Below, one piece after another: positions 930 to 31,724 of a DNA stretch of 64,000 nucleotides; within the stretch, counting starts at the first letter, position 1; each line of letters begins with the position of its first letter. Source of the stretch: Bacteroidales bacterium. Lineage in GTDB: Bacteria > Bacteroidota > Bacteroidia > Bacteroidales > P3. The position numbers and the translations under genes were made by a program. The DNA lies in NCBI GenBank assembly GCA_017550405.1, contig JAFZPH010000019.1, positions 35,075 to 99,074 of the forward strand, written 5' to 3'. The notes under the pieces are model-generated. The model saw only the letters and a list, made by a program, of their open reading frames with translations. It made no database searches and was not told where the DNA came from.

Positions 930-952
930 ATGTGATCTTGAATGTGTGAACG

Positions 953-1015
953 CGTTAATGTGTTAACGTGTTAGTCATTGGCGTATCAAAAGACTCACGA
1001 ATTAACACATTAACG
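953..1015. repeat. Word-type inverted repeat (TTAACACATTAACG family)
   Basis: CGTTAATGTGTTAA (953-966) is the exact reverse complement of TTAACACATTAACG (1002-1015). Related words recur near 14335-14375, 20972-20985 and 31553-31608. Confidence 0.8.
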
Positions 1016-1034
1016 AATTAACGAATTCAAAATT

Positions 1035-14080: not shown

Positions 14081-14945
14081 ATAGCATATCACGTTGTTGT
14101 ACAGATATATTCTCCGTAGGAGATCTCGAATAGGTATATTCCAATGACCGATTTGGGTTTATTTGACAAAGACTAAAGTGTGCCGGAGGCACACCATCTC
14201 AATAACCCCACACTAAACACCGAAGGTGAGCAGTGTGGGGTAACGGTGACCCATCCCAATGCGTGTCGAAGACACGCCACCTCGTATCGATTAACAAGGT
14301 GGCGTACCACCGACAAGCAGAATATGCGTGTTAAAGTGTAAATCGATTTACGAATTAACACATTCACGAAATAATTGTTATATATAGGTGAGTATGCAAC
14401 GCGACGACCCCCCCGCATTATCACTCCCTTACGTCCTTCAAACCGGCATCCTTATTCTATCGTTCCTCCCTCGTTTCCTGTAATGATGAAAGATAACGAG
14501 CCTGTAACGATACTATCAGGATGCTAGATTGAACGGCCCCAGTGAGTCCCAGCGCCAACTCCAGGCTCGATGCCACATCGATAGAAACAATCGAGCAACA
14601 GATAATCAACCGAGAACAGAAAGATAAGCTGCTCCGACAGATAGAAGCCATCGAGAAGAAATGCCGGTTGGAGAAACAGACGCACAAGAAATATGAATTG
14701 CACCAGGAGGTTGTAAGGTTGAAATAAATATTAAGCATGTTTAAATATGCTTAATGTATATTTTCATAATAACATATTCATAATAAATCAGTTACATATA
14801 TATTCTAATTTTAAAAATGTGGTTTAGAACGGTGATTATCACGAATGGATATAAAAAAATAGGTTCAATTTACCCATTGGATAAATATTAAGCACATAAA
14901 AATGTGTTTGATATTTAAAAAAGATGCATATTAGATTATTTTTCG

Positions 14946-16651: not shown

Positions 16652-16659
16652 TATCTTTG
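16652..16659 (+). promoter_or_regulatory. -7 box about 320 nt upstream of the helicase start
   Basis: TATCTTTG, followed directly by the small hairpin CCCGTGG/CCACGGG. Confidence 0.45.
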
Positions 16660-16821
16660 CAACGTCAAACCCCGTGGCCACCACGGGTCAGGCAAGCAAC
16701 AAAAAAGTGTAAAACAACAAACAAATTAACAACATAGAGAAAAGGAACTAACGTAAACAACGACATATTGACATAAAGCATTTTTTGCTTTTCAAGTGGA
16801 TGGAAATCTGGACAATTTCCT

Positions 16822-16887
16822 CTGTATTACACGAGAAAGCAGAAATGCTCACGGTATTATCCGTGGGCTTTCTCGTTTGTAATACAG
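16822..16887 (+). other. Long hairpin in the putative 5' leader of the helicase operon
   Basis: CTGTATTACACGAGAAAGC pairs with GCTTTCTCGTTTGTAATACAG (19 bp with a 2-nt bulge). An inner CACGG/CCGTG stem sits in the loop. Confidence 0.6.
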
Positions 16888-16979
16888 GCAGTCCAGAGCC
16901 TCCATCCAGACAGAAGTCCGCGGATTTTTTCATTGGTGGTGTTTTGAAAGGCAAAAAGCGAAAGAACCTTTCAGACATC

Positions 16980-19900
16980 ATGAGCACCAAATTCTTCAAC
17001 AATATAGAGACGACGCTGATGGACAAGTTCCACGGCATCGCCACAGCAATGGCCAACTTCGACATCTTTCATGCCGTAGTTGGCTATTTCCGTTCTTCGG
17101 GCTATTTCAAACTGCGCAAGGAACTGGAGAACGTGAAAGAGATACGCATCCTTGTAGGTATTGATATTGACAATCTTTTCCGTCAGTCGCAGGCGGCGGG
17201 CAAGCTGTTCTTCGGTGACCGCGATGCCACAATAGAGCAGTATGCTGAGGCTTTTCTGCGCGACGTGAAAGAATCCGATTACGACACCGAGGTTGACCGC
17301 GGTATACGGCAATTCTGCAAAGACATCGAGAGCGGCAGACTTGCGTTGCGTGCTCACCCTTCGCGCGACCTGCACGCCAAGTTCTACCTCTGTCTGCCCC
17401 AAGGGCATAATCCCAACAGCGACGGTTGGGTGATTATGGGCAGCAGCAACCTCAGCGCCCAGGGACTCGGAGCTACCGAGCCACCCAGATATGAGCTCAA
17501 TGTGGCAATGAAGGACTACGATGATGTGAGCTATTGCGAGGGCGAATTTCAACGACTGTGGAACGAAGGTCTGCCTGTCACCTTCGACGATGTGAGTCGG
17601 ATTATCAATAAGACCCACCTTGCTCCGGACGAGCAGCAGCCTACCCCCTACGAGCTTTATATGCGGATGATGATTGACCATTTTGGCACTCAGGTGGAGG
17701 ATGATTTTGTTCCCCTGCTGCCCGACGGCTACGACAATCTCACCTATCAGCGTGATGCTGTAGTGCAGGGCTACGACATCATGATGCGTCATGGCGGATG
17801 CTTTATCGCCGACGTGGTCGGTTTGGGCAAGACGGTTGTCGCCGCCATGATAGCGCAGCGTTTCATTGCCGCCAACGGCGACAGCACCCGCATACTGGTT
17901 ATCTTCCCGCCCGCAGTGCGCAGCAACTGGGTGGAGACCTTCAAGGATTTCAATATCCGCAACAAGTACAGCCACTTCGTCAGTAATGGCAGTTTGGACA
18001 AGGTGATTGCGGGAGCGGACAACTTAAGCCAACCGGGCTACTACGACCTGATTATTGTCGACGAGGCGCATAACTTCCGTCACGACAGTACCGGCAACTA
18101 CGACCTCTTGCAGCGTATCTGCAAGGCACCTCGACTCAACGGCGGCAACGTGTCGGGCGATAAGCGGGTGCTGTTGCTTTCGGCCACACCTTTGAACAAC
18201 ACTCCCGAAGATATAAAGAACCAGTTGTTGCTTTTTCAGGACACCGCCCGCTGCACGTTGGACGGAATAGGCAACATAGCCGACACCTTTGCCCCTTGGG
18301 TAAAGGAGCACAAGACCCTGATGTCGCAGCGGAGGGTGCTAAGTACCGAGATGTTGACCAAGCGCATCGATGCCATCAATCAGGAGATGCGGCATGTGGT
18401 GTTGGAGAAGGTGATGGTGCGCCGAACACGCAGCAACATACAGCATGAACCGCGGTACAGCGGTGAAATCCATTTCCCCGAATTGCTCGACCCCACCGTA
18501 CGCACCTATGAGATGACACCCCATGTCTACGAACTCTTCTACGAGACTTACCGCGCATTGGTTGCTGGAAAGAATAGCGATGCCGACAAGGAAGGCTCTT
18601 CGGGAGATAGTGCAACAGGACTGACTTATGCCCGCTACCGTGCCGTGGAGTACTGCCCTAAATACATCAAAGCCAACGGTGGCAAGGCCAAACAGGTGGC
18701 CGACCAGCTGGCAGCCATCTATCAGACCCACATGGTCAAGCGGTTGGAGAGTAGCTTCTATGCTTTCAAACGTTCATTGCACACCCTGCTGCAAGCCACC
18801 CTTGGCATGATAAAGATGTTTGAAGAAGACAAGGTGATTATCGCACCCGAGTTGAATGTGAAGAAACTACAGTCGGACGGCATGGAATTGGATGCCATCA
18901 TCGAGTTGGCACTGAACAAGGGCTACGACCAGGACGAGATACTATATAGGGCAGCGGATTTCAATCCCGAATTCCTGCCCATGCTCCAAGATGATGCAGC
19001 CTTGCTTGGTGCACTCTGCAAGCAATGGGATGCAGTGGATGAAGACTCGAAATTAGACCGTTTTATCGAGATGCTACAGGGTGAGTTGTTCGAAACCGAC
19101 ACCAATCCGACAGGCAAGCTGGTGGTCTTCTCCGAGAGTGTAGACACGGTGAATTACCTCGAGGAAGAATTGAAGAAACGGTTGCACCGTGATGATATAC
19201 TGGCTGTTTTCTCCAAGAATAGAAACAGGTTGCGCGAGACCGTCAGGGCCAATTTCGATGCCAACTACAAGGGAGAGGCCGTTGATGACTACAATATCAT
19301 CATCACCAGCGACGTGTTGGCGGAGGGCGTAAACCTGCACCGGGCAAATGTGGTAGTGAACTACGACAGCCCGTGGAACGCCACACGACTGATGCAGCGC
19401 ATTGGTCGTGTGAACCGTATCGGGTCGAAAGCACCGGTGATATACAATTATATGTTCTACCCTTCCGACCCGGGCGACAAGATTATCAGCCTGAAGAAGA
19501 ATTCGCTTATCAAGCTGCAGAGTTTCCATTCGGCATTGGGCGAAGACACCCGCATCTATTCCCACGAAGAGATGGTGCATGAGTTTCACCTCTTCAATTC
19601 AGATATGCAGGACGACACCGACCGCAGTCTGGAACTGTTGCGCGAAGTGAGGAGGCTGCACGACAGCAACCCTGCCCTATACCGACGCATCAAGCAGCTG
19701 CCCTGCAAGAGCCGTTGCGCCAGGGATACGAAAAATAACACATTACCACAATCACAAATTCACACAATCACCTATCTCTCTTCCCCGAAGAAGAAAGCCT
19801 TCTATCTTGTGGGGGAACATATCCGCGAGCTCTCTTTCTTAGAGGCAGCCACCATCATGAAGGCAGAGCTGGATGAGCACGCGGTGCCATTTGGTGACAA

Positions 19901-20321
19901 TATGGCACTGCACTACGAACAGGTGCGGAGTGCGATGGCGCAATACACAATCGACCAGCAACGGCAACATCAAGAGGACAAACCCAAGATTGGCAGCAAG
20001 GATAACGACGCTAAAAAGGCGGCTGCTTTCCTGCGCGATGTGCGTCCCTCCCTGCCTGACGACGAGGCCCGCAAAACGGTGGATGTGCTGAAAGCACTGG
20101 TGGAACGGGGTAAGTACAACCAGTTGGCCGACAACCTCAACCGATTGTCGAGGAAGCACAAGAAGAGTCCGCTGCCTATCATCGAGATAGTGGAACAATT
20201 GGAAGAACTGAAAGCCCGATATTCCCATCCCGATAAAGAGACACCGACCCAGACAAGTGCCGGTATCACTGCCGACATAATCCTCAGCGAGACCTTCTTT
20301 TGTTATCCGTTGATAAGTTGA
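16980..20321 (+). CDS. PLD-family nuclease domain fused to an SNF2/DEAD-like helicase (restriction or defence subunit)
   Basis: N-terminal HxK...GSxN motif (DLHAKFYL...IMGSSNLSAQG). Helicase motifs VVGLGKT, IIVDEAHNFR, LLLSATPLNN and QRIGRVNRIG. I chose the ATG at 16980 (MSTKFFNNIE...) because the upstream part of the ORF does not look protein-like. Confidence 0.8.
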   Translation: MSTKFFNNIETTLMDKFHGIATAMANFDIFHAVVGYFRSSGYFKLRKELENVKEIRILVGIDIDNLFRQSQAAGKLFFGDRDATIEQYAEAFLRDVKESDYDTEVDRGIRQFCKDIESGRLALRAHPSRDLHAKFYLCLPQGHNPNSDGWVIMGSSNLSAQGLGATEPPRYELNVAMKDYDDVSYCEGEFQRLWNEGLPVTFDDVSRIINKTHLAPDEQQPTPYELYMRMMIDHFGTQVEDDFVPLLPDGYDNLTYQRDAVVQGYDIMMRHGGCFIADVVGLGKTVVAAMIAQRFIAANGDSTRILVIFPPAVRSNWVETFKDFNIRNKYSHFVSNGSLDKVIAGADNLSQPGYYDLIIVDEAHNFRHDSTGNYDLLQRICKAPRLNGGNVSGDKRVLLLSATPLNNTPEDIKNQLLLFQDTARCTLDGIGNIADTFAPWVKEHKTLMSQRRVLSTEMLTKRIDAINQEMRHVVLEKVMVRRTRSNIQHEPRYSGEIHFPELLDPTVRTYEMTPHVYELFYETYRALVAGKNSDADKEGSSGDSATGLTYARYRAVEYCPKYIKANGGKAKQVADQLAAIYQTHMVKRLESSFYAFKRSLHTLLQATLGMIKMFEEDKVIIAPELNVKKLQSDGMELDAIIELALNKGYDQDEILYRAADFNPEFLPMLQDDAALLGALCKQWDAVDEDSKLDRFIEMLQGELFETDTNPTGKLVVFSESVDTVNYLEEELKKRLHRDDILAVFSKNRNRLRETVRANFDANYKGEAVDDYNIIITSDVLAEGVNLHRANVVVNYDSPWNATRLMQRIGRVNRIGSKAPVIYNYMFYPSDPGDKIISLKKNSLIKLQSFHSALGEDTRIYSHEEMVHEFHLFNSDMQDDTDRSLELLREVRRLHDSNPALYRRIKQLPCKSRCARDTKNNTLPQSQIHTITYLSSPKKKAFYLVGEHIRELSFLEAATIMKAELDEHAVPFGDNMALHYEQVRSAMAQYTIDQQRQHQEDKPKIGSKDNDAKKAAAFLRDVRPSLPDDEARKTVDVLKALVERGKYNQLADNLNRLSRKHKKSPLPIIEIVEQLEELKARYSHPDKETPTQTSAGITADIILSETFFCYPLIS

Positions 20322-20397: not shown

Positions 20398-23300
20398 ATG
20401 AACACCGAGACACTGCGACAGATATTCCAGTCGCCATTCAACTACCCTTTATTCAGTCGTGAGATAGTACATGGCATTTTCGGCTGCAACGATGTGCAGT
20501 CCCAACCCGAACTGATAGACACATCTTCTTTGGGTGACAGCAGCTATTATGTTGGACAGATGGAAGACTGCGAGAGTCGTCTGCTGGGTTTCTTCTATAC
20601 CCGTGTGGCGGAGGGCAGCGACGTGCGCCGCAAGCGCGTAGGATTGAGAAAACTGATACAGCCGTATCTGCGGTATGAGGTGGATGCTGCCATTGCGGTA
20701 TTCGACGATGGGCAGCATTGGCGGCTGTCGTATATCTGCGACCATAAAGAGGGAACAACGTCGGCCAAACGATTTTCTTACGTGTTGGGTGACAAGCAGG
20801 GACAGTACAAGACCCCTTTGGAGCGGTTGGACAGAGTGGCAGCAAAGGCAGGTCATTTTAAGATGGATGACCTTCGGGATGCCTTCTCGGTAGATGCACT
20901 CAGCAAGGAGTTCTTCGATGAGTATCACCGTCACTATGACCGCATCTGTGATTATATTATCCACTCACACATTAACACATTAACGCAATTACACATTCAT
21001 GATTATGTGAAGAAAATGATGGGGCGTATTGTGTTTTTGCATTTCCTGCAGAAGAAAGGCTGGCTGAATGACGACCAAGAGTTTCTAAGCAAACTATTCT
21101 TCTTGAGTCCATACAAGCAGGATTTCCTTGAACAAGAATTAGAGCCACTCTTCTTTGGTATATTCAACACCGAGCCAGACAAACGCGAACAACTGTTTCA
21201 CCAAGAGCTCTGGGATCTGCGGTGGTTAGCGGAATGGGAAAAACTGCCCTATTTGAATGGCGGTTTGTTTGAGCGCGATGAGGTGGACAAAATGAAGATT
21301 AAACTGCCTGCATCATTATTTGAGAATCTGTTTAAGTTTATGGCCTCGTACAACTTCACCATTGATGAGAACGACCCCGACGATGCAGATATTGGAATTG
21401 ACCCCGAGATGCTGGGCAAGATCTTTGAGAGCCTGTTGGAGGACAACAAAGCCAAAGGTGCATTCTATACCCCCAAGGAGATAGTGCGCTACATGTGCAA
21501 AGAGAGCCTGATAGCCTATCTGAATAGTAAAGTGAATAGTGATGAGGTGAATAGTGAATCGAAAGAAAATCAAATCACTAATCACGATTCACTCGTCACT
21601 GCCGTAAGGCAATTTGTTGAGCAGCATGAATTCCCCGAGGAGTTGGAGCCTTATCGCGAAGTGTTAGATACCGCCTTGCGGAATGTGAAGATATGCGACC
21701 CCGCCATCGGCAGCGGTGCCTTCCCGATGGGCTTGCTGAATGAGCTGTGGCGTTGCCGTGAAGCATTGGGAGAAAGGGCTACCAGCCCGTCACAGATGGG
21801 ATCACAGGCCACAGGCCTGTCACAGGCTGGAAGCCTGTGCTCCAAAGAAGGACAAGCTGGAAACTTGTACCCCTATTCCCGCGCAGCCCTCAAACGAGAG
21901 ATCATCGAGAATAACATCTATGGAGTAGACATTGAGAAAGGTGCCATCGACATCGCCCGCCTGCGCTTCTGGCTCTCCATTGTTGTCGATGCTGAGAAAC
22001 CGGAGCCCTTGCCCAACTTCGACTACAAGTTTATGCAGGGCAACAGCCTTATTGAGAGCTTTGGGGGATACGACCTCAGCCATATCATGGACAAGAAAGT
22101 TGAAAGGAATGGAAAAACATATTATCAACGTCGAATAGGAGGAAAAGAGACCGTCCAAGTGTCTATGGATTTCTTCTCCAATGATACAAGACAGAACCTC
22201 AGAATCTGGCTGAAGAGATATTTCACGCTTACCAATCACCATGAGAAAACAGAGTACCGAAAGCGCATCAACGAAAGTGTGAAGAGTTACATAAAACAAC
22301 AAGGCATCGGACCTTCTGCCGAGACCAAATTAGACACCCTCGACCCCTCAGCAAACCAAGACTTCTTCCTCTGGCACACATGGTTCAAAGACATCTTTGA
22401 TAACGGTGGATTTGATATTGTGATTGGAAATCCTCCTTACATCAACGTTGAAAATCTTGATGAAAAGACAAAAGTTTATCTTTTTACGCATTATTCCACA
22501 TGTCAAGGACGCACAGATATTTATATTGGATTTATTGAGAAGGCAATAGCATTAATGAACAATAATGGTGTGACCTCTTTCATTATCCCTTATTCATACA
22601 CTAATCAAAATTATGGAGAACTCTCTCGTAAAATGTTAGCCGAGAAATATTCCATTGATGAGATTGTTGATACCTCCAACTACTATGTTTTTGACAATGC
22701 AGTGGTAAAAAACATTATCATCCGTTTTGGGAAAAGAAAGGGCGATTTCACATTGATTAGAATTGCTGATAATAAAGAATGTTTTGAGCAAGCAAATTTC
22801 GGGAATAGAAGACTGCCTACAAAAACTTTCCTTCAATTAAAGAATTGCCGAATAGAGACAAAACCTTTCGAAAATATATTGGGAATAAAAGAAAATATTG
22901 AAAAGGCATCAATAAGACTAGGAAAAATCTATTTGGTCGCATATGGAGTACGTGTCAATAACAAATATGATAAAAACAAGCCCAAAAACTATTATATTCA
23001 CGACACGCCTCAGGCGCAGTATAAGAAATTTACTGAGGGGAAATGCATAGATAGATATACATTTACACAATATGGATGGCTTAATTATTGTCCGAATGAA
23101 CATTATAATTCCATGTTTCCAGAATTGTTCGAAAATGAGAAACTGATGTTTATCAATGTTGTATCAAAAGGGCTAAGATTTGCATATGATAACGATGGCT
23201 ATTATAATAGTCATACGGTAGTGAACTGCGTGAATATATCAAAGCTTACAAAAGTAACCCATCCAACAGCAAAGAAAGCAATTAAAGAAGGAAATGTTAT

Positions 23301-23604
23301 TCTAGCAAAAAATTACTCCACAAAATTTGTGCTTGGACTAATTAACTCTAAACTTATTAACTGGTATTTCATGCAATTCCAGAGTGAGGGTTTGCATTGT
23401 TATCCAGATGATGCAAAACAATTCCCTATCATAAAAGTCACTCCAGAGCAACAGCAACCTATTATAAATCTAGTTGATCAAATTCTCGAAAAGAAGCGAG
23501 ACTTTCCTAATGCCAATACATCTGCATTGGAACAAGAAATCGACAAATTAGTTTACCAACTCTACAACCTCACTCCCGAAGAAATCGCTGTGATAGAGCA
23601 ATAA
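20398..23604 (+). CDS. Eco57I-like gamma-class N6-adenine DNA methyltransferase with a TaqI-like C-terminal target-recognition domain
   Basis: Motif I DPAIGSGAFPMG, motif IV GNPPY (22429-22440) and TRD-like GLINSKLINWYF. 1068 aa. Confidence 0.85.
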   Translation: MNTETLRQIFQSPFNYPLFSREIVHGIFGCNDVQSQPELIDTSSLGDSSYYVGQMEDCESRLLGFFYTRVAEGSDVRRKRVGLRKLIQPYLRYEVDAAIAVFDDGQHWRLSYICDHKEGTTSAKRFSYVLGDKQGQYKTPLERLDRVAAKAGHFKMDDLRDAFSVDALSKEFFDEYHRHYDRICDYIIHSHINTLTQLHIHDYVKKMMGRIVFLHFLQKKGWLNDDQEFLSKLFFLSPYKQDFLEQELEPLFFGIFNTEPDKREQLFHQELWDLRWLAEWEKLPYLNGGLFERDEVDKMKIKLPASLFENLFKFMASYNFTIDENDPDDADIGIDPEMLGKIFESLLEDNKAKGAFYTPKEIVRYMCKESLIAYLNSKVNSDEVNSESKENQITNHDSLVTAVRQFVEQHEFPEELEPYREVLDTALRNVKICDPAIGSGAFPMGLLNELWRCREALGERATSPSQMGSQATGLSQAGSLCSKEGQAGNLYPYSRAALKREIIENNIYGVDIEKGAIDIARLRFWLSIVVDAEKPEPLPNFDYKFMQGNSLIESFGGYDLSHIMDKKVERNGKTYYQRRIGGKETVQVSMDFFSNDTRQNLRIWLKRYFTLTNHHEKTEYRKRINESVKSYIKQQGIGPSAETKLDTLDPSANQDFFLWHTWFKDIFDNGGFDIVIGNPPYINVENLDEKTKVYLFTHYSTCQGRTDIYIGFIEKAIALMNNNGVTSFIIPYSYTNQNYGELSRKMLAEKYSIDEIVDTSNYYVFDNAVVKNIIIRFGKRKGDFTLIRIADNKECFEQANFGNRRLPTKTFLQLKNCRIETKPFENILGIKENIEKASIRLGKIYLVAYGVRVNNKYDKNKPKNYYIHDTPQAQYKKFTEGKCIDRYTFTQYGWLNYCPNEHYNSMFPELFENEKLMFINVVSKGLRFAYDNDGYYNSHTVVNCVNISKLTKVTHPTAKKAIKEGNVILAKNYSTKFVLGLINSKLINWYFMQFQSEGLHCYPDDAKQFPIIKVTPEQQQPIINLVDQILEKKRDFPNANTSALEQEIDKLVYQLYNLTPEEIAVIEQ

Positions 23605-31457: not shown

Positions 31458-31724
31458 TATAAACATGAATTATCATTAATTGTCATGAATTTGTGGTCAT
31501 TACACGGCAATATAAAAATGCGTTGCAATGTGAATTGAAAAGATTAATAATGCGTTAACGTGTTGATGTGTAAGTTGATTTACGAGTTGACGAATTAACA
31601 CATTAACGAATTAATCATTAATTGTCATGAATTTATGGTCATTACACGGTAATTCGTGTTAAAAGATTCAGTTGAAATTATCATGAACGCCCCTTCCGGG
31701 GGGCAATTTATAGAGATTACCATC

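Follow-up and report, generated by a model that had tools for sequence, protein, structure and literature searches.

Small repeats in frame in three loops of a predicted defence methyltransferase gene from a Bacteroidales bacterium

How do short repeats of the kind that populate intergenic spacers come to lie, in frame, inside the coding sequence of a DNA methyltransferase? The question is raised by a 64,000-nucleotide stretch of contig JAFZPH010000019.1 (GenBank assembly GCA_017550405.1, positions 35,075 to 99,074 of the forward strand), hereafter the window, from a Bacteroidales bacterium. A methyltransferase gene of this window contains three tracts (i to iii) made up of repeated words or hairpins, which a preliminary description had proposed to be in-frame insertions of the repeat families found in the spacers. 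From comparisons with homologous genes and with the repeats of this and related genomes, we consider it probable that the three tracts are small repeats resident in the genus which were captured in frame, and which are most likely carried as passengers without a dedicated function.

Three tracts in a single open reading frame

All three tracts lie in frame within one open reading frame (ORF; nt. 20398..23604, plus strand, 1068 a.a.), in agreement with the sequences and coordinates originally given. Tract i comprises CACATTAACACATTAACGCAATTACACATT (nt. 20968-20997), which encodes HINTLTQLHI. Tract ii contains the word GTGAATAGTGA at nt. 21532 and again at nt. 21547, with inverted arms (nt. 21547-21561 and 21585-21599) that are complementary at 13 of 15 positions. 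With up to one mismatch, this word has six matches against 1.07 expected, a count reached in none of 100 shuffles, and a 17-mer of tract i with up to three mismatches has 13 against 0.17 expected. Two hairpins had been named in tract iii, CACAGGC-TGGAA-GCCTGTG (nt. 21821-21839) and ACAAG-CTGGAAA-CTTGT (nt. 21852-21868), and both are present, but two more had been overlooked, GGGCT-ACC-AGCCC (nt. 21776-21788) and ACAGGCC-ACA-GGCCTGT (nt. 21804-21820). The four follow in succession, with stems of 5-7 bp and loops of 3-5 nt, and have the palindromic stem-loop form of repetitive extragenic palindromic (REP) elements.

The description of the tracts as words and hairpins applies to tracts ii and iii, both of which fold beyond the controls: z-scores were -3.75 (plus strand) and -6.31 (minus strand) for tract ii and -2.6 and -2.9 for tract iii, against -0.5 to +0.4 for three control pieces of the methyltransferase coding sequence. 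Tract i, at +0.34, is unfolded and is a pure word tract without a hairpin. Only one of the six reading frames is open across tracts i and ii, and all three forward frames are open across tract iii.

Presence and absence among homologues

We aligned a close set of 67 homologues (53-100% identity), supplemented by the DNA of 29 loci from the same family, and a distant set of 10 homologues (34-51% identity) taken from this genus and from others of its family. In the 67-homologue alignment, as confirmed on the DNA of the fetched loci, the three sites behave as presence/absence cassettes separated by invariant blocks. Cassette i (nt. 20947..21000, plus strand, a.a. 184-201) reads CDYIIHSHINTLTQLHIH in the window, where its 18 a.a. 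replace the usual 15-a.a. loop, IAELARQGNTGAVFH; the loop is 15 a.a. long in most alleles, and 23 or 27 a.a. in others. Cassette ii (nt. 21523..21603, plus strand, a.a. 376-402, NSKVNSDEVNSESKENQITNHDSLVTA) is 27 a.a. long in the window and 11 to 87 a.a. across alleles, and cassette iii (nt. 21766..21888, plus strand, a.a. 457-497) is 41 a.a. long in the window and 9 to 65 a.a. across alleles, the short form in many alleles reading IEETSSRVE. The L001 homologue has short loops at all three sites (15, 11, and 9 a.a.). Empty sites with conserved flanks, as in-frame palindromic insertion would leave in orthologues, are therefore present in the set.

Matches obtained with HMMER in 45 genomes break at sites i, ii, and iii, and no stop codon was found inside the methyltransferase matches in any of the 45. 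Across tract iii, the match to the MmeI_Mtase Pfam profile takes up 105 residues for 72 profile positions. The syntenic relative L002 gives the same picture in DNA, with 93-100% identity in the flanks of the operon and, over the first 1.7 kb of the methyltransferase gene, a collapse of identity at site i (nt. ~20945-21000) and site ii (nt. 21523-21612) only; tract iii is common to the window and L002.

Among the distant homologues, the stretch around site ii (query residues 362-412) spans 34-38 residues, and 44 in L044, compared to 51 in the window, while the stretch around site iii (residues 440-505) spans 36-41 residues in eight of the ten, compared to 66. L043 and L044 have 78 and 62 residues at the latter stretch, with sequence unrelated to tract iii. 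Short-loop homologues were seen at every site, and because the distant homologues carry no residues homologous to tracts ii and iii, these two tracts are derived insertions; the outcome that would have marked them as ancestral in the preliminary description was thus not what the orthologues returned. The region of site i varies even among the distant homologues, from 34 to 67 residues.

Position of the tracts in the protein

The preliminary description placed all three tracts between conserved methyltransferase motifs. Tract ii does lie between motif X (FYTP) and motif I, and tract iii follows directly after motif I, but tract i falls in the N-terminal helical region. In an AlphaFold2 model of moderate quality (predicted template modelling score, pTM, 0.41), turn or coil was predicted at all three: tract i forms a turn between helices 165-190 and 197-219 (predicted local distance difference test, pLDDT, 71-85), tract ii an inter-helix coil (pLDDT 53-59), and tract iii a 35-residue coil (pLDDT ~28-33). 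All three are accordingly modelled in flexible loops that connect helices within the N-terminal half of the methyltransferase.

Repeat families of the three tracts

The core of cassette i (nt. 20968-20999) consists of four octamer units, two copies of CACATTAA followed by CGCAATTA and CACATTCA, which belong to an 8-nt satellite, (ACATTAAC)n and its variants. The exact 16-mer ACATTAACACATTAAC occurs in tract i, and the family has 114 matches in the genome, against none for a control pattern. The satellite occupies ~100 loci, in arrays of up to 328 bp. On a crude gene map, 92 of 94 strict arrays are intergenic, as are, in looser counts, 76 of 81 or 104 of 109 loci (~95%). Read in the frame of the gene, a perfect octamer array gives ACG CAT TAA; the window has ACG CAA TTA in its place, so that the in-frame stop is removed, and the L011 allele has ACG CAT TTA. 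Methyltransferases of three genomes carry the octamer cassette, and octamer family matches in these genomes number 114, 38, and 8. Two intergenic copies in the window, neither assigned to a strand, are an inverted pair forming a hairpin (nt. 946..1022) and a further inverted pair (nt. 31554..31615).

We also noted the satellite at nt. 14351-14367 of the window, and the variants ACATTAAC, GCATTAAC, and GAATTAAC fill ~100 intergenic spacers, often as inverted pairs. A start codon often follows within 3-60 nt of the end of an array, and tract i was considered as a leader-like internal start signal on this account, but the orientation of the arrays relative to genes (58:41) shows no clear bias and the idea was left with a very low probability.

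Cassette ii is built of GTGAATA-type 7-nt words and forms an imperfect hairpin of ~70 nt (arms at nt. ~21531-21561 and 21575-21600). The corresponding satellite, (GTGAATA)n, has 163, 67, 61, and 59 matches per genome in congeners, with controls near zero. In the genome of the window, a 15-mer of tract ii with up to two mismatches finds 10 loci against ~6 expected by our own arithmetic, which is unconvincing taken alone. Of the two heptamer-rich genomes checked for the octamer, G036 has none and G033 four matches. On these counts, the window allele looks like a mosaic whose cassettes stem from different repeat floras. Tract ii also contains a 15-bp in-frame tandem duplication (nt. 21532-21561, GTGAATAGTGATGAG followed by GTGAATAGTGAATCG), present as a single copy in the L006 allele.

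The last two hairpins of tract iii carry, on the minus strand, the REP heads GGAGCAC and GGGGTAC, and the minus strand of the tract contains GGGGTACAAGTTTCCAGCTTGT and GGAGCACAGGCTTCCAGCCTGT. Nucleotides 21822-21843 of the window match the reverse complement of GGAGCACAGGCTTCCAGCCTGT at 22 of 22 positions, the latter being a REP on contig C60 of the genome to which the window belongs (G000, C60:81660-81681). This copy and three similar ones flank a gene for an IS200-like Y1 transposase, i.e., a REP-associated tyrosine transposase (RAYT; Pfam Y1_Tnp at a.a. 272-364, HUH motif PNHVHVLIE), and the relatives of tract iii at this locus form a classic REP-RAYT arrangement, with REPs flanking the transposase gene. 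On the crude gene map, 30 of the 53 strict REP hairpins of this family fall within called ORFs, and several of these ORFs are themselves read-through REP arrays. The families of the in-frame tracts also have intergenic copies, for tract ii mainly in congeners.

A single open frame of 532 a.a. (C60:81155-82753) runs through a WYL domain, REP hairpins, the Y1 transposase, further REP hairpins, and a WCX domain, so the REP-flanked RAYT lies inside a WYL-WCX regulator gene without having closed its frame; after it (C60:83150-83660) come eight tandem units of ~97 bp with one REP in each. Further genes for IS200-like Y1 transposases are found at C58:92237-92773, C43:36484-36942, and C37:24753-25220. 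Each of the four transposase genes in the genome is bordered by its own hairpin family, and the genome therefore hosts several separate sets of REPs and transposases.

Further families at the same sites

At least five further palindromic families occupy these sites in relatives, and site ii and site iii often share a family. One of the five is a 33-bp REP unit, GGGACACAGGCCACTGGCCTGTCAAAAGAATCA, present at site ii in 3-8 tandem copies that give arrays of 34, 45, 56, 67, 78, and 89 a.a., i.e., steps of 11 a.a.; some units differ by a paired stem change (ACAGGCC/GGCCTGT versus ACAAGCC/GGCTTGT). The others are a family encoding SQSERKE...SDCDK, a palindrome of ~130 bp (SPSPAGRDLVNLVDSAD...), a family encoding SSPKLGEG/SPLERG, and a three-hairpin family (DTSERCDFNNPxQ...QCGD). 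All five occur at site ii and at site iii, in different alleles, and in L011 and L014 the ~130-bp element is found at each of the two. At site i, the L004 allele has in frame a perfect palindrome with a 13-bp stem and a GTAG head, beside which the GGAGCAC/GGGGTAC heads of tract iii may be set.

The three-hairpin family has an intergenic representative in the window itself, a REP-type composite at nt. 14176..14292 (plus strand) with the hairpins GTGTGCC-GGAG-GCACAC, AACCCCACAC…GTGTGGGG, and GCGTGTC-GAAG-ACACGC. It aligns column by column with the flanks of the C43 RAYT and with the in-frame cassettes of L006, L018, L015, and L033, the family being found in frame at sites ii and iii in relatives.

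The cassette types form 23 combinations in the 67 alleles, a near-free assortment across the three sites. An identical protein is encoded on six contigs, and many independent assemblies contain the cassettes. When neighbouring blocks of the protein were compared, their pairwise distances correlated at 0.53 across site i, 0.67 across site ii, and 0.77 across site iii. The cassettes were considered as breakpoints of a mosaic gene, but the clear break is near a.a. 660, the values at sites ii and iii do not exceed the noise expected where diversity is low, and there is a dip, to 0.53, at site i only. A phase-variable contingency locus was rejected, as the units that vary are those of 33 bp and 15 bp, and the 8-nt and 7-nt words, short and degenerate, stay fixed in frame.

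Two other features of the gene were noted. A fourth variable stretch (nt. ~22095-22330, a.a. 566-645), also seen in the comparison with L002, has a few allelic types and no obvious hairpins. The break at a.a. 660 (nt. ~22375) is sharp and lies just before NPPY (distances of blocks 600-660 versus 661-720, r = -0.08); it fits the swapping of a module in which the C-terminal catalytic part is joined to the target-recognition domain.

Similar inserts elsewhere in the genome

A conserved gene of 829 a.a. on contig C17 (C17:2801-5290) contains four REPs in frame (GHPARQQEYGHLARVAVDGHLARTPNDGQDART), adding up to ~31 a.a. This array is missing from eight of ten matched congener genomes, in which the matches split at query residues 247/283 with ~12 nt between them. 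The same gene also has an octamer tract (TRTLTHSRNNT). On contig C47 (C47:69872-71398), a THUMP/RlmL-like RNA methyltransferase ends in a C-terminal tail of ~100 a.a. (…STGASPVNRNTGVSPVNRNTG…) produced by reading through a REP array. A genome-wide census of clusters of at least three perfect hairpins was too strict, missing the methyltransferase of the window, and was not used for rates.

The methyltransferase and its defence setting

The gene that carries the tracts is matched by the Pfam profiles Eco57I (135 bits, 3.5e-39, cut-off 25.3), N6_Mtase (40.1, cut-off 20.4), and TaqI_C (34.3, cut-off 26.5), as well as MmeI_Mtase, and motif I (DPAIGSGAF) and motif IV (NPPY) are visible in its translation. 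PADLOC returned REase_MTase_IIG, DrmMI, and PglX, and structure comparison gave CamA, PglX/BrxX, M.BseCI, MmeI, and TaqI as fold matches. Judging by these matches, the product is a putative gamma-class N6-adenine DNA methyltransferase of the Eco57I/PglX/MmeI type, with its own TaqI-like target-recognition domain. It has in common with PglX/BrxX (of BREX), MmeI (Type IIL), DrmMI (of DISARM), and CamA the catalytic fold and the Eco57I-family signature, a comparison that bears on the gene and not on the tracts.

Upstream in the same operon lies a partner gene for an HKD(PLD)-SNF2 helicase (nt. 16785..20321, plus strand; Pfam and PADLOC matches). It is free of repeats, with no indels relative to L002 across nt. 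16652-20250, and its length is steady in relatives (~1098-1113 a.a.). The surrounding defence island also contains PDC-S01 and AbiE. Among the eight neighbouring proteins scanned with PADLOC, core genes of DISARM (DrmA, DrmB) or BREX (BrxC, PglZ) were not found, and the two operon genes gave partial matches only (DrmD-like and DrmMI/PglX-like). Unlike in BREX and DISARM, the partner of the methyltransferase here is one HKD-SNF2 helicase.

Passengers or functional cassettes

In the passenger reading, which we favour, hairpin-forming repeats would enter single-stranded DNA at the three sites by way of a RAYT-type Y1 transposase, template switching, or illegitimate recombination. Selection would then retain those copies that add a multiple of three nucleotides, contain no stops, and fall in loops tolerated by the fold. 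The cassettes may later grow or shrink by slippage, and would be shuffled among alleles by homologous recombination via their conserved flanks. The comparisons given above show the derived state of the tracts, their membership of these repeat families, and, in the model, their loop positions; the insertion mechanism and the neutrality of the tracts are what we infer.

The original proposal of in-frame insertion of spacer repeats was largely borne out, with several caveats and points against our reading. Tract i replaces a loop whose length varies in general, adds 3 a.a. net, and is not a clean insertion. Only ~3 loci resembling tract ii are found in this genome, and because of this scarcity in its own spacers the satellite origin of the tract is drawn from congeners. 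For a REP family, that of tract iii has few copies (53 strict hairpins, grouped into 21 clusters), and those outside the tract lie on other contigs, none of them in the window. No insertion event was seen directly and no target-site signature was identified. The coding and intergenic counts depend on a crude, home-made gene map of a genome in which intergenic DNA makes up ~15%, and the structural model (mean pLDDT 72.5, pTM as above) represents the catalytic core poorly. Lastly, the reuse of three loops by many families and the compensatory stem changes of the 33-bp units could reflect selection for something.

The form such selection might take is that of adaptive variable loops, in which repeat insertion, copy-number change of the 33-bp unit, and shuffling among alleles let the cassette slots supply selected diversity of surface or linker, for escape from phage inhibitors of PglX-like methyltransferases or for tuning how the enzyme is coupled to its helicase-nuclease partner. 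Near-free assortment of the cassettes (23 combinations in 67 alleles), the use of the same loops by at least six families, length steps at site ii resembling those of variable number tandem repeats, the location of the gene in a defence island, and a helicase partner that lacks such decoration all speak for it, as does the known inhibition of PglX/BrxX, which are structural relatives, by Ocr from phage (PDB 8q56, 9ex7, 8zek). However, many alleles are short at all sites and evidently viable, genes of the same genome with no role in defence carry similar inserts, and the loops are predicted to be disordered and are distant from the motifs, so we regard this explanation as unlikely. A stronger version, in which the loops are maintained as cassette slots and selfish repeats have been co-opted to generate diversity in an immune protein, strikes us as rather improbable.

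The tracts could alternatively matter as nucleic-acid structures, whether as pause, attenuation, or RNase sites in mRNA or DNA or as recombination joints for module exchange. The significant folding of tracts ii and iii, the paired changes that preserve stems between 33-bp units, and the fall in block-distance correlation to 0.53 across site i would be in keeping with this. Set against it, perfect stems are general to REP families, intergenic copies included, and tract i is unfolded. Because the hairpins are missing from many alleles, differ in family from allele to allele, and have no match to any Rfam family in the window, no conserved RNA role is indicated, and the suggestion that RNA structures are held in the gene for a purpose found no support. 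At sites ii and iii the correlations (0.67 and 0.77) are within noise and lend no support to a role as recombination joints, the main break (r = -0.08) lying near a.a. 660 and not at a cassette; overall, a structural function seems quite improbable. That the tracts are ancestral low-complexity linkers, or products of misassembled repeats in a metagenome-assembled genome, is highly improbable: the varied length of the site i loop in distant homologues (34-67 residues) would suit ancestral linkers, but tracts ii and iii are missing from those homologues, exact matches of 16 and 22 nt tie the tracts to repeat families, and the same protein and cassettes recur across contigs and independent assemblies.

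Comparison with known systems

By analogy, the passenger reading most likely describes a known phenomenon in a new host, akin to the palindromic elements of Rickettsia and to intragenic REPs. The latter were described as palindromic repeats bearing a GTAG or CGTC tag (Di Nocera et al. 2013, PMC3733652), and in-frame elements of both kinds in other phyla include multiple hits per gene and clusters encoding 20-82 a.a. (PMC3733652, PMC3184786). As in those REP and RAYT systems, in which most copies are extragenic, the repeats studied here are short, G+C-rich palindromes, some of which flank the gene of a Y1 (IS200-like) transposase. Conserved genes likewise contain in-frame copies, which come singly, as dimers, or in clusters that encode 20-80 a.a., and one gene is sometimes hit at two sites. 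The differences are that the host is a rumen Bacteroidales genus with a low copy number, that the heads of tract iii are GGAGCAC and GGGGTAC, the GTAG/CGTC tag not being established for this tract, that the decorated gene is a defence methyltransferase and not one of replication or repair, and that the same three loops are occupied by several REP families as well as by two satellites of short period.

Rickettsia palindromic elements (RPEs; Ogata et al. 2000, as summarized in PMC3184786 and PMC3733652) are, according to these summaries, also in-frame palindromes that leave genes intact, occupy surface positions, and have intergenic copies; the ~130-bp palindrome of L011 and L014 is of RPE size. 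Compared to the RPEs as summarized there, the present repeats belong to another phylum and a free-living or gut-dwelling bacterium, the units in the window are shorter (17-70 nt), and the decorated methyltransferase is a protein predicted from sequence.

Specificity subunits of Type I restriction-modification systems contain in-frame repeats that alter spacer length by their copy number. The 33-bp unit resembles these in that its length is a multiple of three and its copies vary between alleles of a gene of restriction-modification type with the frame intact. It differs in its place, a methyltransferase loop between motifs X and I and not a target-recognition domain, and in being itself a REP hairpin.

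Implications

Such tracts should not be taken for domain boundaries or frameshifts in annotation. The cassettes are natural markers of insertion-tolerant loops in PglX/MmeI-like methyltransferases, and the satellites are possibly useful as markers as well. As satellite abundance differs among the few congeners compared, the cassettes may also preserve a trace of the earlier hosts of a defence gene that is mobile. Were the loops truly maintained as cassette slots, their diversity could counter phage inhibitors of PglX-like enzymes or act on how the methyltransferase is coupled to the helicase-nuclease. Within one gene family, at least six repeat families have settled in three loops, which provides comparable material in the form of empty and filled sites, one element at two sites, and stepwise copy-number variants. 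The notion of selfish DNA inside genes, as developed for the RPEs and for proteobacterial intragenic REPs, would in this way extend, in an unusually clear form, to the Bacteroidales of gut and rumen.

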